A stretch of 64,000 nt of DNA from Candidatus Marinacidobacterales bacterium (lineage in GTDB: Bacteria; Acidobacteriota; Vicinamibacteria; Marinacidobacterales; SMYC01), in NCBI GenBank assembly GCA_965237955.1, contig OZ250169.1, positions 3,040,001 through 3,104,000 on the forward strand, written 5' to 3'. A model generated the notes under the pieces. It did not search any database, was not told the DNA's origin, and saw nothing but the letters and a program-made list of their open reading frames with translations. This document shows, piece by piece, positions 2,224 to 53,002 of this stretch. A program made the translations under genes and the position numbers. The first letter of the stretch is position 1. Every line of letters begins with the position of its first letter.

Positions 2224-2422
2224 TGACAAACCCAAGAGGAGGGCGCGGGATGAGCGTGTGCACGCTGACGCCCTTATTAGACGCGATGGCGTTCGCCGGC
2301 ACACGCAGGCCAACGGACACTAGCATTCAAATGCCTCTAGCGGCGTAGCAACATATCTGGACTCCTCTAGTCAAGCCCCTTTCTTAATAAATCTTCCATC
2401 GAAGCTGCGCATCCATCGCGTC

Positions 2423-2618
2423 GTGACGAGTGGGTCAGACTGCAAACGTATCTTCGGCCTCAGTGAGGAGCGTCTTGGGTGCTCCGGGCCATGATGGAAA
2501 ATCCGCGCGCGAGGAGCCAATCACTTTGAACGACCTCTTAGGGCCAGTGTTGCTATCGGCTTGACCCCGCGCCGGTCCGACCGGTACGCCATCAGTTGGA
2601 TGGGTATCGTCGCAGCCT
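2423..2618 (-). ncRNA. Putative bridge/seek RNA (copy 1); boundaries approximate
   Basis: Same sequence as 51795-51990, which carries target and donor matches. Confidence 0.7.
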
Positions 2619-2663
2619 CTTTTGGAAGGGAAAAAGGAAAACACGAAAGTGGAGCCTCTAAGT

Positions 2664-3695
2664 CTAAGCGGCCATCGGCGACTGGAATTCACTCTCGCGG
2701 GTGGAGACGGCCCAGACGATCCGGGCGAGTTTGTTGGCGACAGCAATCACGGCCTTGTTGTGTCCCCGCGAGCGGTGGACCTTCCGAGCCCAGGCGCGGA
2801 GCTTGTCGGGCGGGCTCTTACTGACGTTCGCCGCGCGGAGCACGGCGCGCCCGCCCTGGGTGAGGAGCATACGGAGGTAGGAGTCGCCACGCTTGGTGAT
2901 GCGTCCGAGGCGGCGAATGTCGCCACTGGAGTTTTCCTTGGGAACTAGGCCGAGGTAGCTCGAGAAGCGGCGCCCCGATGGGAAGCGGCGAAGATCGCCG
3001 ACGAAGCCCACGATGGCGGTCGCGGTCAGAAGTCCGATGCCGGGAATGGCGAGAAGTCGTTGGACTTCAGGAAGCTGCTTGGTGAGCGCCTTGAGCTCGT
3101 GCTCGATGCCAGCGCACTTGTCCTTGAGTTCTCGAATCTCGGAGCAGGCATCACGGAGATGCGAACGGAGCACGTCGGGCAAATCAGAATCAGCGTCTTC
3201 GACGAGTTCGAAGAGGGCGGGCACGACGAAGTGAGCGCCCTTTGGGATGATGAATCCGAGTTCGCGCAGGATCCCGCGTACGGCATTGATGCGTGCGGTC
3301 CGTGTGGAGAGCCATCCTGAGCGCAGGCGATGGAGCGCGGCGAGGCTGTGCTGGTGCACGGACTTAATGGGCACGGGAAGAATCTCCTCGTTCCTGTAGG
3401 CCTCGAGCAACGCTTTGGCGTCGGCGCGGTCGTTCTTGCTCCCGCGTCGATAGGGCCTCACGAGGTGAGGTGGGAGCAGGACGACGTCGTGTCCCAACCT
3501 TCGGAACGTCCTTGCCCAGAAGTGAGCAGAGCCGCAGGCTTCGAGAAGCACGGTGGCAGCGCTCTGTTTGGCAAAAAACGACACCAACTTGGGTCGACTC
3601 ACACGGAGTTGCTTGGACACCTTCCCCGCTTCTCCCGAGATGGCAATCTCGAAGACGTTCTTTGCAAGATCCACAGCGATCGTCGTATCTTTCAT
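2664..3695 (-). CDS. IS110/IS1111 DEDD recombinase (transposase)
   Basis: VDLAK, LEACG, KNDRADA (DEDD), PGIG, ENSSG (catalytic Ser region), KRGD.YLR; AGGAGG RBS before MKDTT. Confidence 0.95.
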   Translation of the reverse strand: MKDTTIAVDLAKNVFEIAISGEAGKVSKQLRVSRPKLVSFFAKQSAATVLLEACGSAHFWARTFRRLGHDVVLLPPHLVRPYRRGSKNDRADAKALLEAYRNEEILPVPIKSVHQHSLAALHRLRSGWLSTRTARINAVRGILRELGFIIPKGAHFVVPALFELVEDADSDLPDVLRSHLRDACSEIRELKDKCAGIEHELKALTKQLPEVQRLLAIPGIGLLTATAIVGFVGDLRRFPSGRRFSSYLGLVPKENSSGDIRRLGRITKRGDSYLRMLLTQGGRAVLRAANVSKSPPDKLRAWARKVHRSRGHNKAVIAVANKLARIVWAVSTRESEFQSPMAA

Positions 3696-4099
3696 TCGGA
3701 CTCCTCCTTTTCGATGCGTATTCGACTGACTTTGGCACATCGATGCCGTCTATGTCAGCGGAGGAGTCCATTCCATCACTTGATGGCAGAAGCACCGCTT
3801 CACGAGCACGTCATCTCGAACGCGCGCGAATCCCGCACCCTCGCCGTTCCGCGGGACACGCTACTTCCCAGGCTTCATTTCCGACGAGCTGCGGGTAAAG
3901 GGAAATCACAACCCTTCGGAGCAACGCCTCTAGTCCAGTTTGACAGCCGGGTAACGAACGAACATGGGAATACGCTGTCGCGGGGTTTCTTTCGGGCGCC
4001 TGACCTCAACCTTAGAAGTATTGCACAGACCATTCACCGCCAACCGTTTACAGGCTTATCGGGGGGAAACATGAGGACTGCCAGCAGCTCGGAACATCG

Positions 4100-8707: not shown

Positions 8708-8955
8708 GGAGCTTCCGGTTCTTGGCTGGAAGGTGCTTCCGCAATCAAGTGTTGGTGACTGCCGCGTAACCCGCTCGTGTGCTAGAGTTTGAGCCTGATT
8801 TCGGGAGACGCAGTTTTTTCGACGATGCGGGCTGGGCTGACCACACGGTGCCTGACATTCAGGGACACCTTCGTGTGCACGCCGACATCCTTATCAATGG
8901 CGTTCGCCGACACAGGCAGGCCAGCTGACATTAGCATTCAAACACGGCGTAGCAA

Positions 8956-10382
8956 CATATCTGGACTCCTCTAGTCAAGCCCCTTTCTTAATAAATCTTC
9001 CATCGAAGCTGCGCATCCATCGCGTCGTGACGAGTGGGTCAGACTGCAAACGTATCTTCGGCCTCAGTGAGGAGCGTCTTGGGTGCTCCGGGCCATGATG
9101 GAAAATCCGCGCGCGAGGAGCCAATCACTTTGAACGACCTCTTAGGGCCAGTGTTGCTATCGGCTTGACCCCGCGCCGGTCCGACCGGTACGCCATCAGT
9201 TGGATGGGTATCGTCGCAGCCTCTTTTGGAAGGGAAAAAGGAAAACACGAAAGTGGAGCCTCTAAGTCTAAGCGGCCATCGGCGACTGGAATTCACTCTC
9301 GCGGGTGGAGACGGCCCAGACGATCCGGGCGAGTTTGTTGGCGACAGCAATCACGGCCTTGTTGTGTCCCCGCGAGCGGTGGACCTTCCGAGCCCAGGCG
9401 CGGAGCTTGTCGGGCGGGCTCTTACTGACGTTCGCCGCGCGGAGCACGGCGCGCCCGCCCTGGGTGAGGAGCATACGGAGGTAGGAGTCGCCACGCTTGG
9501 TGATGCGTCCGAGGCGGCGAATGTCGCCACTGGAGTTTTCCTTGGGAACTAGGCCGAGGTAGCTCGAGAAGCGGCGCCCCGATGGGAAGCGGCGAAGATC
9601 GCCGACGAAGCCCACGATGGCGGTCGCGGTCAGAAGTCCGATGCCGGGAATGGCGAGAAGTCGTTGGACTTCAGGAAGCTGCTTGGTGAGCGCCTTGAGC
9701 TCGTGCTCGATGCCAGCGCACTTGTCCTTGAGTTCTCGAATCTCGGAGCAGGCATCACGGAGATGCGAACGGAGCACGTCGGGCAAATCAGAATCAGCGT
9801 CTTCGACGAGTTCGAAGAGGGCGGGCACGACGAAGTGAGCGCCCTTTGGGATGATGAATCCGAGTTCGCGCAGGATCCCGCGTACGGCATTGATGCGTGC
9901 GGTCCGTGTGGAGAGCCATCCTGAGCGCAGGCGATGGAGCGCGGCGAGGCTGTGCTGGTGCACGGACTTAATGGGCACGGGAAGAATCTCCTCGTTCCTG
10001 TAGGCCTCGAGCAACGCTTTGGCGTCGGCGCGGTCGTTCTTGCTCCCGCGTCGATAGGGCCTCACGAGGTGAGGTGGGAGCAGGACGACGTCGTGTCCCA
10101 ACCTTCGGAACGTCCTTGCCCAGAAGTGAGCAGAGCCGCAGGCTTCGAGAAGCACGGTGGCAGCGCTCTGTTTGGCAAAAAACGACACCAACTTGGGTCG
10201 ACTCACACGGAGTTGCTTGGACACCTTCCCCGCTTCTCCCGAGATGGCAATCTCGAAGACGTTCTTTGCAAGATCCACAGCGATCGTCGTATCTTTCATT
10301 CGGACTCCTCCTTTTCGATGCGTATTCGACTGACTTTGGCACATCGATGCCGTCTATGTCAGCGGAGGAGTCCATTCCATCA
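8956..10382 (-). mobile_element. IS110-family (IS1111 group) element, copy 2
   Basis: Same ends and sequence as copy 1. Confidence 0.92.
9268..10299 (-). CDS. IS110/IS1111 DEDD recombinase
   Basis: Protein identical to 2664-3695 in the ORF track. Confidence 0.95.
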   Translation of the reverse strand: MKDTTIAVDLAKNVFEIAISGEAGKVSKQLRVSRPKLVSFFAKQSAATVLLEACGSAHFWARTFRRLGHDVVLLPPHLVRPYRRGSKNDRADAKALLEAYRNEEILPVPIKSVHQHSLAALHRLRSGWLSTRTARINAVRGILRELGFIIPKGAHFVVPALFELVEDADSDLPDVLRSHLRDACSEIRELKDKCAGIEHELKALTKQLPEVQRLLAIPGIGLLTATAIVGFVGDLRRFPSGRRFSSYLGLVPKENSSGDIRRLGRITKRGDSYLRMLLTQGGRAVLRAANVSKSPPDKLRAWARKVHRSRGHNKAVIAVANKLARIVWAVSTRESEFQSPMAA

Positions 10383-10414
10383 CTTGATGGCGGAAGCACC
10401 ACAGCGGGTACACG

Positions 10415-11672: not shown

Positions 11673-11909
11673 GCCCGTCCTGTGCGGTGCTTCCGCAATC
11701 AAGTGTTGGTGGCTGCCGCGTAACCCGCTCGCGTGCTAGAGTTTGAGCCTGATTTCCAGAGACGCAGTTCTTTCGGCGATGCCGACTGAGCTTACCACGC
11801 GGTGATTGACGTTCAGAGACATCTTCGTATGCGCGCCGACATCCTTATTTATGGCGTTCGCCGACACAGGCAGGCCAACTGACACTAGCATTCAAACGCG
11901 GCGTAGCAA

Positions 11910-12993
11910 CATATCTGGACTCCTCTAGTCAAGCCCCTTTCTTAATAAATCTTCCATCGAAGCTGCGCATCCATCGCGTCGTGACGAGTGGGTCAGACTG
12001 CAAACGTATCTTCGGCCTCAGTGAGGAGCGTCTTGGGTGCTCCGGGCCATGATGGAAAATCCGCGCGCGAGGAGCCAATCACTTTGAACGACCTCTTAGG
12101 GCCAGTGTTGCTATCGGCTTGACCCCGCGCCGGTCCGACCGGTACGCCATCAGTTGGATGGGTATCGTCGCAGCCTCTTTTGGAAGGGAAAAAGGAAAAC
12201 ACGAAAGTGGAGCCTCTAAGTCTAAGCGGCCATCGGCGACTGGAATTCACTCTCGCGGGTGGAGACGGCCCAGACGATCCGGGCGAGTTTGTTGGCGACA
12301 GCAATCATATCTGGACTCCTCTAGTCAAGCCCCTTTCTTAATAAATCTTCCATCGAAGCTGCGCATCCATCGCGTCGTGACGAGTGGGTCAGACTGCAAA
12401 CGTATCTTCGGCCTCAGTGAGGAGCGTCTTGGGTGCTCCGGGCCATGATGGAAAATCCGCGCGCGAGGAGCCAATCACTTTGAACGACCTCTTAGGGCCA
12501 GTGTTGCTATCGGCTTGACCCCGCGCCGGTCCGACCGGTACGCCATCAGTTGGATGGGTATCGTCGCAGCCTCTTTTGGAAGGGAAAAAGGAAAACACGT
12601 ATCTGGACTCCTCTAGTCAAGCCCCTTTCTTAATAAATCTTCCATCGAAGCTGCGCATCCATCGCGTCGTGACGAGTGGGTCAGACTGCAAACGTATCTT
12701 CGGCCTCAGTGAGGAGCGTCTTGGGTGCTCCGGGCCATGATGGAAAATCCGCGCGCGAGGAGCCAATCACTTTGAACGACCTCTTAGGGCCAGTGTTGCT
12801 ATCGGCTTGACCCCGCGCCGGTCCGACCGGTACGCCATCAGTTGGATGGGTATCGTCGCAGCCTCTTTTGGAAGGGAAAAAGGAAAACACGAAAGTGGAG
12901 CCTCTAAGTCTAAGCGGCCATCGGCGACTGGAATTCACTCTCGCGGGTGGAGACGGCCCAGACGATCCGGGCGAGTTTGTTGGCGACAGCAAT
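11910..12993 (-). repeat. Head-to-tail array of three IS1111 right-end/bridge-RNA modules (396, 292, 396 bp)
   Basis: TATCTGGACTCCTCTAG restarts at 11912, 12308, 12600 and 12996. Confidence 0.92.
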
Positions 12994-14422
12994 CATATCT
13001 GGACTCCTCTAGTCAAGCCCCTTTCTTAATAAATCTTCCATCGAAGCTGCGCATCCATCGCGTCGTGACGAGTGGGTCAGACTGCAAACGTATCTTCGGC
13101 CTCAGTGAGGAGCGTCTTGGGTGCTCCGGGCCATGATGGAAAATCCGCGCGCGAGGAGCCAATCACTTTGAACGACCTCTTAGGGCCAGTGTTGCTATCG
13201 GCTTGACCCCGCGCCGGTCCGACCGGTACGCCATCAGTTGGATGGGTATCGTCGCAGCCTCTCTTTTGGAAGGGAAAAAGGAAAACACGAAAGTGGAGCC
13301 TCTAAGTCTAAGCGGCCATCGGCGACTGGAATTCACTCTCGCGGGTGGAGACGGCCCAGACGATCCGGGCGAGTTTGTTGGCGACAGCAATCACGGCCTT
13401 GTTGTGTCCCCGCGAGCGGTGGACCTTCCGAGCCCAGGCGCGGAGCTTGTCGGGCGGGCTCTTACTGACGTTCGCCGCGCGGAGCACGGCGCGCCCGCCC
13501 TGGGTGAGGAGCATACGGAGGTAGGAGTCGCCACGCTTGGTGATGCGTCCGAGGCGGCGAATGTCGCCACTGGAGTTTTCCTTGGGAACTAGGCCGAGGT
13601 AGCTCGAGAAGCGGCGCCCCGATGGGAAGCGGCGAAGATCGCCGACGAAGCCCACGATGGCGGTCGCGGTCAGAAGTCCGATGCCGGGAATGGCGAGAAG
13701 TCGTTGGACTTCAGGAAGCTGCTTGGTGAGCGCCTTGAGCTCGTGCTCGATGCCAGCGCACTTGTCCTTGAGTTCTCGAATCTCGGAGCAGGCATCACGG
13801 AGATGCGAACGGAGCACGTCGGGCAAATCAGAATCAGCGTCTTCGACGAGTTCGAAGAGGGCGGGCACGACGAAGTGAGCGCCCTTTGGGATGATGAATC
13901 CGAGTTCGCGCAGGATCCCGCGTACGGCATTGATGCGTGCGGTCCGTGTGGAGAGCCATCCTGAGCGCAGGCGATGGAGCGCGGCGAGGCTGTGCTGGTG
14001 CACGGACTTAATGGGCACGGGAAGAATCTCCTCGTTCCTGTAGGCCTCGAGCAACGCTTTGGCGTCGGCGCGGTCGTTCTTGCTCCCGCGTCGATAGGGC
14101 CTCACGAGGTGAGGTGGGAGCAGGACGACGTCGTGTCCCAACCTTCGGAACGTCCTTGCCCAGAAGTGAGCAGAGCCGCAGGCTTCGAGAAGCACGGTGG
14201 CAGCGCTCTGTTTGGCAAAAAACGACACCAACTTGGGTCGACTCACACGGAGTTGCTTGGACACCTTCCCCGCTTCTCCCGAGATGGCAATCTCGAAGAC
14301 GTTCTTTGCAAGATCCACAGCGATCGTCGTATCTTTCATTCGGACTCCTCCTTTTCGATGCGTATTCGACTGACTTTGGCACATCGATGCCGTCTATGTC
14401 AGCGGAGGAGTCCATTCCATCA
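12994..14422 (-). mobile_element. IS110-family (IS1111 group) element, copy 3
   Basis: As copy 1 plus a 2-bp CT insertion near 13260. Confidence 0.92.
13308..14339 (-). CDS. IS110/IS1111 DEDD recombinase
   Basis: Protein identical to copies 1 and 2. Confidence 0.95.
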   Translation of the reverse strand: MKDTTIAVDLAKNVFEIAISGEAGKVSKQLRVSRPKLVSFFAKQSAATVLLEACGSAHFWARTFRRLGHDVVLLPPHLVRPYRRGSKNDRADAKALLEAYRNEEILPVPIKSVHQHSLAALHRLRSGWLSTRTARINAVRGILRELGFIIPKGAHFVVPALFELVEDADSDLPDVLRSHLRDACSEIRELKDKCAGIEHELKALTKQLPEVQRLLAIPGIGLLTATAIVGFVGDLRRFPSGRRFSSYLGLVPKENSSGDIRRLGRITKRGDSYLRMLLTQGGRAVLRAANVSKSPPDKLRAWARKVHRSRGHNKAVIAVANKLARIVWAVSTRESEFQSPMAA

Positions 14423-14486
14423 CTTGATGGCGGAAGCACCGCACAGGACGGGGTCAAGAGCCGTGCTTCGGCTACCCACCCAACTT

Positions 14487-25498: not shown

Positions 25499-25595
25499 CC
25501 CTCGGCCAGACGATTGTAAAGCCTACGGCCCTTGGTCCGGTCGCAAACACAGACACTAAGCTTCTGATTTATGGCCTAGAGTCAAGCCCATTCTC

Positions 25596-26971
25596 CTAAG
25601 AAACTACCGCCTGAACGACGTCGCCCGTTTGAGTGTCGATGATAGCGAAACCGAGGTCAGCGGCGCGTTGGGTCAGGCGGCGCACGGCACGGGAGCGATC
25701 TTGAGCGTTGTAGGCGGCGGCCCCGGGGTCTTGATAGACGAGCCCATCCTTGAGAGTGCGGTAGACGAGAATGGCGAGCTTTCGAGCGGTGGCGGTGATG
25801 GCTTTGGATTTACCGACGCGATAGGCGAGACGTCGATAGTAGGCGCCGAGAGCGGTCTGTGTACGCCCGAGGCTGAGTGCGGCCATGCGGAGAATGCCAG
25901 CGGCGCGGTTTGCAGAGGGTTGTGTTTTCGAGCTGAGGAGTCGCCCGCCGGAGATTTTGTTATTGGGCGCGAGGGTAAGCCAGGAAGTGAAGTGCTTTTC
26001 AGTAGGCCATCGGTTCATATCGGTCCGATCTCGGCGAGCAAGCGAAGCGCGGAATAGGGTCCGATGGCGTCGATCTGGGAGAGGTCGACCCCGGCGATCT
26101 GGTGGAGGAGAGGCCGGAGCTCGAACCGAGGTTCGTTCACTCGGGGCTTGCGCGATTTTCGAGGCGGTGGCAAGGAGGTGTTCGGGGTTGAGCGTTGAGC
26201 TAGAAGCTGCAGGTGCGATTCGATGGCCACGTCACAGGTTTGGATCTGGAGCTGAAAAGCATCAAAGAGTTCGAGGTTCTGCTTGAGAGCGAAGAGGTGC
26301 TCGGGGCGATAGTTGCCGGTGAGTGCAGCGGCGATCTCGGCCTCGGAGGACTGACAACGGTGGTCACGGTGCTTGGCGAGCCGATGGGGGTCGGTTTGTC
26401 CGGCAACGATGTCTCGTAGAATCCGCATGCCAGTGACACCCGTGATATCAGTGACCACAAGGTGGAGTTGAAGATTCATTTGCACGAGAGCCTTCTGCAT
26501 GCGCTGGATATGGGTTACCGCACTCTGAACGAGAGTCTCTCGGTGGCGGAGGTAGCCACGCAGGGCGGTGATGGCTGCTTCGGGTCGAAAGCTTCCGCGG
26601 AGCAACCCCACGCTGTGCAACTCCCGGAGCCATTCGCAATCGCTGACATCGCTCTTGCGCCCCGGGACGTTTTTGACGTGGCGCGCGTTGACCAAGAGGA
26701 CCTGGAAGCCACGGGCTTCGAGGATTTCATACAGGGCGATCCAGTAGACGCCGGTCGACTCCATCGCGACGCTCGTCACGCCGCAAGTCGCGAGCCGATG
26801 AAGATCGGCCGTGAAACTCCTGAAGGAACGGACCGGTTTAGGATCGCGCTCCGGTGGAACTGCGACGAAATGCTCGGCCGAGCCGCAATCGATCCCAGCG
26901 ACATTCACGTTGATTTGCTTCAGGATGGAAGGAGAAGTCCGCTTCTTGGGTTGACGACGATTGTGCTTCAT
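25596..26971 (-). pseudogene. IS110-family transposase, frameshift near 26018
   Basis: GIDCG, MESTGVYW, KSDVSDC, EIG.DM.RW, NKISGG, ARKLA in two frames. Confidence 0.88.
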
Positions 26972-26995
26972 CAGATGCTCCTTCATACTTCGTGA

Positions 26996-27150
26996 AGCAT
27001 CCGGGAACAGGGATTGGCATTCGTTACATTCTCCTAAACGGGATCACGCTCACGCGTGTCACCACTGACAGTGCCGAAACATCCCCGGGCCATGCTTAGT
27101 TACGGGCTGGATCGCACCAGTGTTGAGTCGGCCTCGGTTCCCGGATGCTC
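26996..27150 (-). ncRNA. Putative bridge RNA of the second IS110
   Basis: 13-bp closing stem AGCATCCGGGAAC/GTTCCCGGATGCT; TACAAT -10-like box at 27156-27161; 10-11 nt matches to both element junctions. Confidence 0.6.
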
Positions 27151-27390
27151 CCGCTATTGTATGAAACGGACGCTCCGTGCAGCACTGGAGTTTCTACCCA
27201 GATAGATCGCGAGCCCTGCGCGTACGATGCTTAGTTGAAACTCTCCACGGCTCACGTTTAAGCGACCTTTCTTCTTGAGTTTTTCTAGTTTCGCAAGGCT
27301 GTTTATACGCGCTCTCGGGGTTTCAACTGTTCATTCCCACTTCCAGGCATTACGCGGCCATTCGTCTGGTCCACGGAATGGTCGGTCGCG

Positions 27391-46456: not shown

Positions 46457-47653
46457 GGTGCTTCCGCCATGAAGTGTTGGTGGCTGCCGCGTAACCCGTT
46501 CGCGTGCTAGAGTTTGAACCAGAATTCTGAAGACACAGTTCTCTCATCGTCAGGGCCGAGCCGAAGTGAAGAATAGCAGATGTCTCAATCCCGCATGTCC
46601 GTTGCGGGGCAAAGTCAGTTCCGGAAACATCGTTCGCCACGGATTCTACCGAACCAGGTCCGGGAAACGCCGTCGATACCGGTGCGGCGAGTGCGGAAAG
46701 ACGTTCTCCTCGACGAAAGGCACGCCCTACTACCGTCTCCAACATCGAAGAGCTACTTTCGATGGGGTCATCGCTCTCAGAGTCGAGGGTGTCAGCATTT
46801 CCTCGATTTCCCGGACCGAAGGGCTTGCCTGGAACACCGTCGCCCGCTGGCTCGAGAAGGCAGCCCAAGTGTGTCGTCGATTCAACCACACAAGGATCGC
46901 TGGCTTCGCTGCCGAAGAGCTTCAAGCCGACGAGATTCGCACGTTCGCGGGCGACAAGAAGACGCCGAGTTGGGTCTTCGTTACGATCGAGGTCTGGTCT
47001 CGGCTCTGGCCATCGACGGTGACGGGAAGGCGAAGCTACCGGAACACTCACGCTCTGTTTCACGACCTTTCGCGGCGGATGAATTTCGAGCGTCTTCCCT
47101 TGATCGTTACGGATGGATTCGAATTCTACCAGAAGGTCATCCGTCGCTTCTTCGGGCCAGCGTGTCTCTACGGCCAAGTCCTCAAAACTCGCAGGAACGA
47201 TCGTATCATCAAGGTCGAACGGAGAGCGCTGCACGGAGCCGCGTGGCGATTCGAAGACGCGCTCAATAACTCCGAGGACTCTTCGACATTGAACACGTCG
47301 TTCATCGAGCGGTTGAATCTGACCATCCGGCAAAGCTCGGCATACCTTTCGAGACGAACGCTTTCCCACGCTCGCTCGACGGAGAGGCTCGATGAGCACC
47401 TGGAGTTGCTCCGTTGCTATTACAACTTCGTCCGACCGCACGGAGCTCTGAAGTTCGGACGTGAGATCCGAACTCCGGCTATGCAGGCTGGTCTGACGAC
47501 GCGACGGCTCACCTTTCGAGACATCTTCTTGGCGACAACGATTCCTTTGTGGTTGCGGATCGAGGTTTTCCTGCTCACTAGGGCGCGCAACCCGGTCTCT
47601 TCCGCACCTGTACCACTGCCCGCAGCCGCGTAGCACTTGATGGCGGAAGCACC
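46457..47653 (+). mobile_element. IS1-family element, apparently intact
   Basis: TIRs GGTGCTTCCGCCATGAAGTG / CACTTGATGGCGGAAGCACC. Confidence 0.85.
46566..47633 (+). CDS. IS1-family transposase (Zn-ribbon, HTH and DDE in one frame)
   Basis: CLNPAC..RYRC..CGKTF; QADE, TDG...Y, NTSFIER.N..IR, YNF.RPH, TPAM.AG. Confidence 0.85.
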   Translation: MKNSRCLNPACPLRGKVSSGNIVRHGFYRTRSGKRRRYRCGECGKTFSSTKGTPYYRLQHRRATFDGVIALRVEGVSISSISRTEGLAWNTVARWLEKAAQVCRRFNHTRIAGFAAEELQADEIRTFAGDKKTPSWVFVTIEVWSRLWPSTVTGRRSYRNTHALFHDLSRRMNFERLPLIVTDGFEFYQKVIRRFFGPACLYGQVLKTRRNDRIIKVERRALHGAAWRFEDALNNSEDSSTLNTSFIERLNLTIRQSSAYLSRRTLSHARSTERLDEHLELLRCYYNFVRPHGALKFGREIRTPAMQAGLTTRRLTFRDIFLATTIPLWLRIEVFLLTRARNPVSSAPVPLPAAA

Positions 47654-50613: not shown

Positions 50614-50717
50614 TTTGGTGCTTACGCCATCAAGTGATGGAATGGACTCCTCCGCTGACATAGACGGCATCGATGTGCCAAAGTCAGTCGAATACGCATC
50701 GAAAAGGAGGAGTCCGA

Positions 50718-51749
50718 ATGAAAGATACGACGATCGCTGTGGATCTTGCAAAGAACGTCTTCGAGATTGCCATCTCGGGAGAAGCGGGGAAGGTGTCCAA
50801 GCAACTCCGTGTGAGTCGACCCAAGTTGGTGTCGTTTTTTGCCAAACAGAGCGCTGCCACCGTGCTTCTCGAAGCCTGCGGCTCTGCTCACTTCTGGGCA
50901 AGGACGTTCCGAAGGTTGGGACACGACGTCGTCCTGCTCCCACCTCACCTCGTGAGGCCCTATCGACGCGGGAGCAAGAACGACCGCGCCGACGCCAAAG
51001 AGTTGCTCGAGGCCTACAGGAACGAGGAGATTCTTCCCGTGCCCATTAAGTCCGTGCACCAGCACAGCCTCGCCGCGCTCCATCGCCTGCGCTCAGGATG
51101 GCTCTCCACACGGACCGCACGCATCAATGCCGTACGCGGGATCCTGCGCGAACTCGGATTCATCATCCCAAAGGGCGCTCACTTCGTCGTGCCCGCCCTC
51201 TTCGAACTCGTCGAAGACGCTGATTCTGATTTGCCCGACGTGCTCCGTTCGCATCTCCGTGATGCCTGCTCCGAGATTCGAGAACTCAAGGACAAGTGCG
51301 CTGGCATCGAGCACGAGCTCAAGGCGCTCACCAAGCAGCTTCCTGAAGTCCAACGACTTCTCGCCATTCCCGGCATCGGACTTCTGACCGCGACCGCCAT
51401 CGTGGGCTTCGTCGGCGATCTTCGCCGCTTCCCATCGGGGCGCCGCTTCTCGAGCTACCTCGGCCTAGTTCCCAAGGAAAACTCCAGTGGCGACATTCGC
51501 CGCCTCGGACGCATCACCAAGCGTGGCGACTCCTACCTCCGTATGCTCCTCACCCAGGGCGGGCGCGCCGTGCTCCGCGCGGCGAACGTCAGTAAGAGCC
51601 CGCCCGACAAGCTCCGCGCCTGGGCTCGGAAGGTCCACCGCTCGCGGGGACACAACAAGGCCGTGATTGCTGTCGCCAACAAACTCGCCCGGATCGTCTG
51701 GGCCGTCTCCACCCGCGAGAGTGAATTCCAGTCGCCGATGGCCGCTTAG
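50718..51749 (+). CDS. IS110/IS1111 DEDD recombinase
   Basis: One substitution (AKAL to AKEL) versus the other copies. Confidence 0.95.
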   Translation: MKDTTIAVDLAKNVFEIAISGEAGKVSKQLRVSRPKLVSFFAKQSAATVLLEACGSAHFWARTFRRLGHDVVLLPPHLVRPYRRGSKNDRADAKELLEAYRNEEILPVPIKSVHQHSLAALHRLRSGWLSTRTARINAVRGILRELGFIIPKGAHFVVPALFELVEDADSDLPDVLRSHLRDACSEIRELKDKCAGIEHELKALTKQLPEVQRLLAIPGIGLLTATAIVGFVGDLRRFPSGRRFSSYLGLVPKENSSGDIRRLGRITKRGDSYLRMLLTQGGRAVLRAANVSKSPPDKLRAWARKVHRSRGHNKAVIAVANKLARIVWAVSTRESEFQSPMAA

Positions 51750-51794
51750 ACTTAGAGGCTCCACTTTCGTGTTTTCCTTTTTCCCTTCCAAAAG

Positions 51795-51990
51795 AGGCTG
51801 CGACGATACCCATCCAACTGATGGCGTACCGGTCGGACCGGCGCGGGGTCAAGCCGATAGCAACACTGGCCCTAAGAGGTCGTTCAAAGTGATTGGCTCC
51901 TCGCGCGCGGATTTTCCATCATGGCCCGGAGCACCCAAGACGCTCCTCACTGAGGCCGAAGATACGTTTGCAGTCTGACCCACTCGTCAC
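51795..51990 (+). ncRNA. Putative bridge/seek RNA; boundaries approximate
   Basis: TAGCAACACT (51858) and AAGTG (51887) match the target; TTCCATCAT (51914) and AGATAcG (51960) match the donor junction; hairpins between them. Confidence 0.75.
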
Positions 51991-52038
51991 GACGCGATGG
52001 ATGCGCAGCTTCGATGGAAGATTTATTAAGAAAGGGGC

Positions 52039-52044
52039 TTGACT
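52039..52044 (+). promoter_or_regulatory. Outward -35 box (TTGACT) for a circle-junction promoter
   Basis: In the joined ends it lies 18 bp before TGGAAT (TGnTGGAAT) from the left end; junction promoters are typical of IS1111 elements. Confidence 0.5.
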
Positions 52045-53002
52045 AGAGGAGTCCAGATATGTTGCTACGCAGCATTTGAATGCTAGTGTCAGTTGGCCTG
52101 CCTGTGTCGGCGCACGCCAAATAAGTATGTGACGTGCACACAGAGACATCCTTGAAGGTGAGGCATCGCGTGGTCAGCCCAGCCGGCATCGCAGAAAGAA
52201 CTGCGTCTCTCGAAATCAAGCTCAAACTCTAGCACGAGAACGGGTTACGTGGCAGACACCAACACTTGCTTGCGGAAGCACCGCGTCCTGTGCCAAAACT
52301 CGGCTCTTTTGAAAGACCATGGCTGTAATTTCATGCACCGTGAAGTCTTAGCGTCATTTTACCAACACTTAATGGCGGAAGCACCCATGAGGTCTGTGTG
52401 AGCAGCAGGGCTACCCGATCGAACAACGGCTGCCTGACCAACAGTAGGATTTGCACATGGTACGTCATGATGGATCCGAAGATAACACCCTCGGGCCAGA
52501 CGATTGTAAAGCCCACAGCCCTTGGCACCGTCGCAAAACACAGACGCTAAGCTGCTGATTTATCGGCTATTTCAAGAGGGCCGAGTTTTGGCACAGGACG
52601 GGGAACAGGTTTATTGGCAGACCTATTCTTAGGCCGGCCAAGGAGCCACCGCTACCCCAAATTCAACATCCGGCGGGACATTCCCGTCCATTGGTACAAC
52701 ACGCAACGACTCTTGGAGCCGATCGGAAATGTCGCCCCGGTCGAGTACGAGATGAACTACTATCGATCGCAGGAAGGCTCGCTAGAGATGGCGAGACTCA
52801 ACTAAAGCAGTCTCCGGAAAACCCGGAGCGGTTCACCCGGGGCGGTTCAGTATCAGCAGATTGGCCCGCGGTGGGAAGGGCAAGGAAGTGACGGTCGTCA
52901 AGGGGAAAACCTTGCCGCCAGGTCCGACAAAAGGGACCACCTACAAACTCGTGGACGCGACGAAGAACAAGTCCGGGAGAGGAAAATAGAGGGGTTCGGA
53001 CA

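Follow-up and report, generated by a model that had tools for sequence, protein, structure and literature searches.

An intact IS1111-group insertion sequence with a DEDD/serine recombinase lies at 50635-52059 of the window, the 64,000-nucleotide stretch of DNA analyzed here (G000:3040001-3104000; G000, the home genome, is one contig of 8.13 Mb). A predicted RNA encoded 3' of its recombinase gene very probably guides the recombinase, by base pairing, to an 11-nt site around a TG core; this site lies in the right terminal repeat that an IS1-like element shares with its MITE derivatives. The mechanism is already known, and IS1111 targeting of terminal repeats and of MITEs is already in print. 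New from this locus are a paralogue with an attC-type guide, an exhaustion series across related genomes, and by-products at the core. The parts of the element are as follows.

50635-52059, + strand: IS1111-group element, 1425 bp counting one TG core; second TG at 52060-52061
50718-51749, + strand: recombinase gene, 343 aa, with PF01548 and PF02371 domains
50643-50652, + strand: left sub-terminal inverted repeat, 10 bp, perfect
52046-52055, + strand: right sub-terminal inverted repeat, partner of 50643-50652
52039-52044, + strand: -35-like hexamer, which in a circle would meet the left end and make a promoter at the junction

The recombinase combines a DEDD RuvC-like domain with a C-terminal domain carrying the serine of an SG motif, and its 343 aa lie within the expected range of 330 to 350. 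Residues D9, E52, D89, D92, and S257 were assigned by motif, and profile NF033542 scored 305 bits (cut-off, 140). The sub-terminal repeat is perfect over 10 bp, or 11 bp with an outer mismatch, and thus leaves extensions of 7 and 3 nt, which are the rule in the IS1111 group (PMC11187229, available text); element 50635-52059 follows that rule. The gene is followed by 310 nt of noncoding DNA (51750-52059), the long downstream region expected of IS1111 elements, and a single target site is used in a single orientation in the home genome and in the relative G033. This layout of gene, sub-terminal repeats, and 3' noncoding DNA is that of IS1111 as defined in the available text of PMC11187229. Domains, profile, repeats, and the covarying stems described below agree with the recombinase family, sub-terminal repeats, and 3' RNA named in the original prediction. 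A sigma-70 scan found no promoter in the linear element, and Rfam at gathering scores gave no match over the window. The window is also rich in defense-type genes (961-63864), including helicases, HNH, ThiF, RAMA, HEPN/Toprim, HEPN/RES, XhoI restriction-modification, SbcCD-like, and DNA methylase genes.

Three further copies lie in the window; the last two rows give the host sequence that flanks the copy at 50635-52059.

2352-3777, - strand: second copy, inside a truncated IS1-like right end with no paired left end
8956-10381, - strand: third copy, inside MITE-A 8732-10400
11910-14421, - strand: fourth copy (12994-14421), then three tandem right-end duplications, in MITE-A 11686-14440
50617-50636, + strand: outer 18 nt of the host right terminal repeat plus the TG core, adjoining the left end of the element at 50635
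52060-52282, - strand: remainder of the MITE-A host, derived by deletion from an IS1-like element and 83 to 84% identical to parts of the parent

All four copies were found at the coordinates first proposed and at one site, with a left junction that is always CATCAAG-TG and an outermost right junction that is always TG-TTGCTAC. The core is TG at both junctions, and the right donor guide alone reads CG, as the original reader had marked. A BLAST search of the home genome returned 16 full-length copies (97.8 to 100% identity), one copy split by another insertion, several fragments, and a paralogue at 91%. In 24 of 26 cases the left junction came after the 18 outermost nt of a terminal repeat of the IS1-like type, the exceptions being the paralogue, which has other guides, and one unrelated end. 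Right ends ran into TTGCTA in 18 of 25 cases, resumed inside the element in 6, and belonged to the paralogue in 1. Full copies were mostly one base away from the window copy, versus a median pairwise identity of 77% over 100 nt of host interior (1 of 153 pairs identical), confirming that near-identical insertion sequences sit in diverged hosts. Placement in the right repeat of MITE-A was correct as to the right end, but the copy at 2352 lies in a truncated end and full-length IS1-like elements serve as hosts too.

The predicted RNA and its guides occupy the noncoding region 3' of the gene.

51797-51974, + strand: predicted bridge RNA, ~180 nt, with closing stem, 5' hairpin, target-binding loop, and donor-binding loop
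51858-51865, + strand: left target guide, 6 nt plus core; match extends to 51867
51887-51891, + strand: right target guide, 3 nt plus core
51914-51921 (segment to 51922), + strand: left donor guide, matching the left end of the element
51960-51966, + strand: right donor guide, matching the right end with one core mismatch, CG versus TG

The 10-mer TAGCAACACT occurs seven times in the window, each time within a copy of the element or a duplicated right end (chance mean, 0.04). Guide covariation was scored across 59 loci, of which 35 were skipped (ends missing, flanks short, or no anchor) and 24 were parsed, giving 15 distinct left guides. Among the 15 distinct homologues, the match of guide to cognate flank was 6.13 of 7 on the left versus 3.36 and 2.87 of 4 on the right versus 1.23; 0 of 20000 permutations reached either value, counts that overstate significance because the homologues are kin. 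Two loci were misparsed, L063 at the guide anchor and L068 at the left end, and both lower the cognate mean. In these alignments the target guides vary with the flanks and thus do not behave as scaffold; the risk that CAACACT is invariant scaffold is refuted by the occurrence of CAACAC in the left guide of only 1 of the 24 parsed loci, namely this element. The guides match both target strands and change with the target in homologues and in the paralogue. The donor loop matches both strands of the joined ends, apart from the single mismatched core position of the right donor guide. Matches of the donor guides to both element ends hold here and in homologues, where the ends vary little; the covariation score covers the target guides. 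All four guide assignments therefore stand, the target guides by covariation with the flanks and the donor guides by their matches to the element ends.

The fold and covariation alignment with homologues that had been proposed as a check was run on 32 candidate regions, of which 26 aligned. Guide columns were unpaired in the consensus and the two-loop structure was conserved; 94.6% of stem cells were paired versus 33 to 38% in slid controls, and 12 of 25 pairs carried compensatory changes. The single-sequence fold was weak (z = -1.83, 7/200). Handshake dinucleotides were discarded as evidence: both fit an insertion-favoring pattern here, but the donor-loop one was fully matched in 1 of 15 scored homologues, this element. 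Contigs of RNA runs cover parts of the element, and such contigs cannot show transcription. The end-to-end joint is absent from the contigs of four runs, but contigs drop rare forms and are therefore uninformative on a circle. One RNA-run contig, of depth 5, joins the right end of the element back to 51527.

IS1-like ends were sorted according to how well they fit AAG-TG-TTGCTA, the 11-nt site that the two target guides read. In the genome-wide map of copies and empty sites called for by the original prediction, home genome ends with the exact site were filled in 17 cases and empty in 1, and ends with at least one mismatch were filled in none and empty in 169. Eight further filled ends for which no right end was found lie outside the 17/18 count, and four of the 17 filled sites have common flanks and are probably one insertion that was duplicated. 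No end of the TG-TTGG type occurred among the 17 filled ends with both junctions, in agreement with the claim that such ends are empty. Exact 11-mers were found empty three times genome-wide versus 0.74 expected by chance, which indicates that the 11-mer is either not sufficient or not yet used at those places. TCAAG is present at every filled site of the home genome; of the three exact 11-mers that are empty, two are without the C.

In relatives, empty 13-nt sites were counted against IS1-like ends found by a 23-nt pattern; the two patterns are not strictly nested. The counts were 80/325 in G033, 51/246 in G018, 22/130 in G015, and 15/70 in G008, with 41/91, 25/122, 17/69, 4/14, and 0/4 in other relatives and 0/20 in G012. 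By the same patterns the home genome holds 1 empty 13-nt site versus 76 IS1-like ends. The values of 1 versus 76 here and 0/20 in G012 indicate that the site is near exhaustion in both genomes. A search of 185,579 species genomes for the fused junction found it in six assemblies, all titled "Candidatus Marinacidobacterales bacterium."

A site shared by so many copies could also be inherited, one or a few insertions having spread as a composite, whether moved by the IS1-like transposase or copied in segmental duplications. The left end of the element restores 22 of the 23 outer nt of the host repeat, so that such a composite could stay mobile, and the four home genome copies with common flanks speak for some spread of this kind. 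The divergence of hosts around near-identical copies argues against it, as does G033, where the sample took in every one of the 33 filled sites and 79 of the 80 empty ones. Left junctions there lie in IS1-like ends at 33 of 33 sites, and filled hosts are scattered among empty ones without clustering in the 108 hosts (nearest neighbor filled, 0.23 versus 0.26; 3297 of 5000 shuffles higher), with limited power inside the large cluster of near-identical hosts (12 filled, 41 empty). Both main haplotypes of the element occur in both host classes, with a lean toward different classes that would suit descent (10:5 versus 2:6, P = 0.09). Independent insertion, as originally proposed, is what these data support; descent is already unlikely as the main cause, and we regard it as very improbable. 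In G033, one copy (L114) runs into left-end-type sequence. Most copies in that genome (L087-L119) have a 20-nt right-end duplication that doubles the -35-like hexamer, and one copy has two.

It is more improbable still that protein contacts with the IS1-like end or with bound transposase set the target and that the RNA matches are secondary. The TCAAG at all filled sites exceeds the 3-nt right guide, which implies that something reads beyond the simple guide, but a one-base bulge in the RNA might explain it. A recombinase 93% identical, with other guides, uses another site, and guides track flanks in homologues. In the relative G012, 6 of the 10 copies are found away from IS1-like ends; two of these sites (L201 and L202) match the guide at 10 of 11 positions, and the other four match poorly or could not be resolved. 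Insertions at guide-matching sites outside IS1 ends suggest that base pairing, and not the host transposase, selects the site. The description of the element as a parasite of IS1 ends thus fits the home genome and G033, but what the element reads is a short sequence, as the G012 copies illustrate.

The third alternative is a variant of base pairing by the 3' RNA: the target loop alone would be used as a seekRNA of 70 to 100 nt, the donor loop would be dispensable, and junctions would be transferred directly, with no circle. In ISEc11, short RNAs with the target part only are the dominant form and are sufficient (PMC11187229, available text), single-junction transfer is supported in CazIS110-1 (10.1101/2025.10.25.684509, available text), and the many one-junction products seen here fit. 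The donor loop is, however, conserved, and both its guides match the element ends in homologues. We consider this variant unlikely, though a serious candidate; the two routes are not exclusive.

The hosts belong to one IS1-like family, the full-length parent of which was located via relatives and by tblastn.

46457-47653, + strand: full-length IS1-like parent, ORF 46566-47633

The stop codon of this parent lies inside the target site read by the left guide. A site that overlaps the host stop codon and lies outside chromosomal genes makes an abundant and cheap landing place. MITE interiors translate to an N-terminal zinc finger and an IS1-type C terminus. The best model for the parent was NF033558 (IS1), with an E value of 5e-22 and 78.8 bits, below the cut-off of 100, and the zinc domain NF050000 was weak. 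PF03400 had no match in the home genome and exceeded its cut-off only in the G012 homologue L033. IS1-family elements have terminal inverted repeats of about 23 bp beginning with GGT, and the hosts have repeats of this type. IS1-family insertion generates target-site duplications of 8 to 9 bp that vary in some subgroups. Here, duplications of at least 4 bp were found at 0 of 41 end pairs genome-wide and at neither L031 nor L033. This is unusual for IS1 as generally described and may reflect adjacent deletion or a distinct subgroup. The IS1 origin that had been claimed agrees with the terminal repeats, and the best model, below its cut-off, points the same way, but target-site duplications of at least 4 bp are missing from 41 of 41 end pairs, and for that reason we call the host IS1-like rather than filing it as IS1. 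Of the 30 filled G033 sites that have a right end, 15 are of the parent type; together with the full-length hosts, this indicates that the element targets right ends throughout the family and not those of the MITEs alone. A separate element of 323 bp with 34-bp inverted repeats (52281-52603) is present in many copies and is inserted in MITE-B. IS1-like ends often adjoin one and the same point of its repeat.

None of the three full-length hosts in the home genome is available: the one at 7.86 Mb is filled, the one at 1.09 Mb is mismatched beside the core, and the one in the window is 3 nt short there. IS1-like right ends without these 3 nt occur at window 47634-47636 and at G000:7995414, 2881075, and 7926986. 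The deletion variant was absent from the five other genomes searched, four of which have no recombinase match. The loss could be a scar of imprecise excision or the result of slippage; either way, the guide match is gone.

By-products of the element end at the core. At the six internal right-end junctions, which fall at four distinct sites, the sequence always picks up again at a TG or CG of the element, and this dinucleotide is retained; TG and CG together occupy 16% of positions. Tandem duplications of the right end were found at window 11910-12995, at G000:1133671, 3027298, and 7864498, and at L011, L024, and L095, and every duplicated piece carries the whole predicted RNA region. An eight-unit array of flanking DNA (G000:2861942-2862400) lies beside a left junction, with units of 48, 61, and 62 nt that all end at the core, as do shorter flank duplications (16 and 79 nt) and several 20-nt stubs. 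Array and duplications are likely products of repeated recombinase events, with assembly error possible for the array. Such by-products would fit single-junction transfer, by analogy with CazIS110-1, where tandem repeats and single-junction transfer are described (10.1101/2025.10.25.684509, available text), and they would also fit the mini-circles described for ISPpu9 (PMC12288879, available text). A second, IS110-group element in the window (25570-27270, - strand) has a 5' noncoding region, a frameshifted gene, and ~10 genome copies. Its leader upstream of the gene contains GCCGA..CAACACTGG, a resemblance to which the original prediction had pointed.

The origin of the targeting is suggested by the paralogue in the home genome (G000:5245812-5247237), which is 93% identical in amino acid sequence (91% by BLAST) and in which both target guides are changed and fit its own, different site. 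Its left guide equals that of ISPa25 over 8 nt, and its insertion point is an attC-like site just past a stop codon, as in several metagenomic homologues. In the nearest outgroup (L034), the guide starts as it does in ISPa25 and the paralogue. ISPa25 (L258) is the best named plasmid match to the recombinase (46% amino acid identity) and targets attC (PMC11187229, available text). The score for an attC R box is insensitive: ISPa25 itself was at 236 of 500 shuffles and the paralogue at 25 of 500. From these comparisons, the present guide appears to have arisen from an attC-reading guide by a single substitution within the initial 7 nt of the left guide, together with changes at the core and in the right guide. 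The direction from attC to IS1-like end is likely, given a weak attC score and a quick tree of which only the topology was used, with several guide labels wrong, three rows dropped, and the position of the paralogue left open. Since the 93% paralogue keeps an ISPa25-type left guide, natural retargeting is likely. By its target, an IS1-like end, the element falls outside the IS1111-attC group, to which it is related by descent. A homologue at 62% (L006 and L013; G009) has its insertion site in the loop of a REP-like palindrome, and its guides match that site.

IS4321-type IS1111 elements are reportedly aimed at Tn21 terminal repeats. Both they and the element described here are IS1111-group elements that occupy a fixed position within a terminal repeat belonging to another mobile element, but the host here is an IS1-like insertion sequence with its MITEs, only the right end is used, and the repeat is almost restored by the invader's left end. 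The Coxiella IS1111 also uses MITEs, with 20 of 21 copies in one family, QMITE2; its site is a REP-like hairpin in the MITE, whereas the site here is the terminal repeat at which the transposase of an identified parent binds (PMC5896051, available text). ISPa25 resembles the element in the first 19 nt of the left end, the layout of the right end, a two-loop RNA 3' of the gene, and a related left guide. Its group, IS1111-attC (ISPa25, ISKpn4, and ISPst6; PMC11187229, available text), reads attC, whereas the element reads the IS1-like right end. ISPa25 and most homologues have a TG left core and a CG right core; the element has TG on both sides. IS621 shares the DEDD/serine recombinase, four guides around a 2-nt core, and a target loop that precedes the donor loop, but it belongs to the IS110 group, with its RNA upstream of the gene, a CT core, and a REP target (PMC11208160 and PMC13626964, available text). 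Only the C-terminal domain of its recombinase aligns with that of the element (E value of 2e-8). ISEc11 and ISXne4 are related elements, 72% identical, with changed guides and targets (PMC11187229, available text); here, in contrast, the paralogues are 93% identical and share a genome, and the change of target leads from one class of mobile-element sites to another. No IS110 or IS1111 element directed to the ends of the IS1 family turned up in a literature search; one may be listed in ISfinder, TnCentral, the Ataide target tables, or supplements.

In the mechanism that we favor, guidance by the 3' RNA, rare excision or copy-out would yield a circle of the element, by analogy with IS621, ISEc11, and CazIS110-1. 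In the circle, the -35-like hexamer of the right end would meet the left end and form a junction promoter, from which recombinase and RNA would be made. As in IS621 and others, the donor loop would bind the joined ends and the target loop the IS1-like end, and strands would be exchanged at the 2-nt TG core. Judging from the relatives, few changes may have turned an attC-reading guide into the present one. Where exact sites are scarce, junction halves would react with cryptic TG or CG sites and give duplications.

Tentatively, and as a whole on the doubtful side, we propose that an attC-targeting bridge recombinase was retargeted by few guide changes to become a hyperparasite of an IS1-like element. 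It would exhaust its target, no full-length host having an intact empty site, and select for host ends that escape; it would then rearrange DNA by single junctions, multiplying the bridge-RNA region and building flanking arrays. The duplications and stubs at the core bear on the dispute between cut-out, copy-out, and single-junction transfer, and as in vivo traces they are relevant to off-target by-products of bridge editors. The locus offers a natural set of recombinase, guide, and target with a TG core and a natural mismatch scan, with 18 exact and 169 mismatched sites in one genome and more in five relatives. With its 93% paralogue carrying an attC-type guide, it also provides a ready pair for asking how few RNA changes shift the target class of an IS1111 element.
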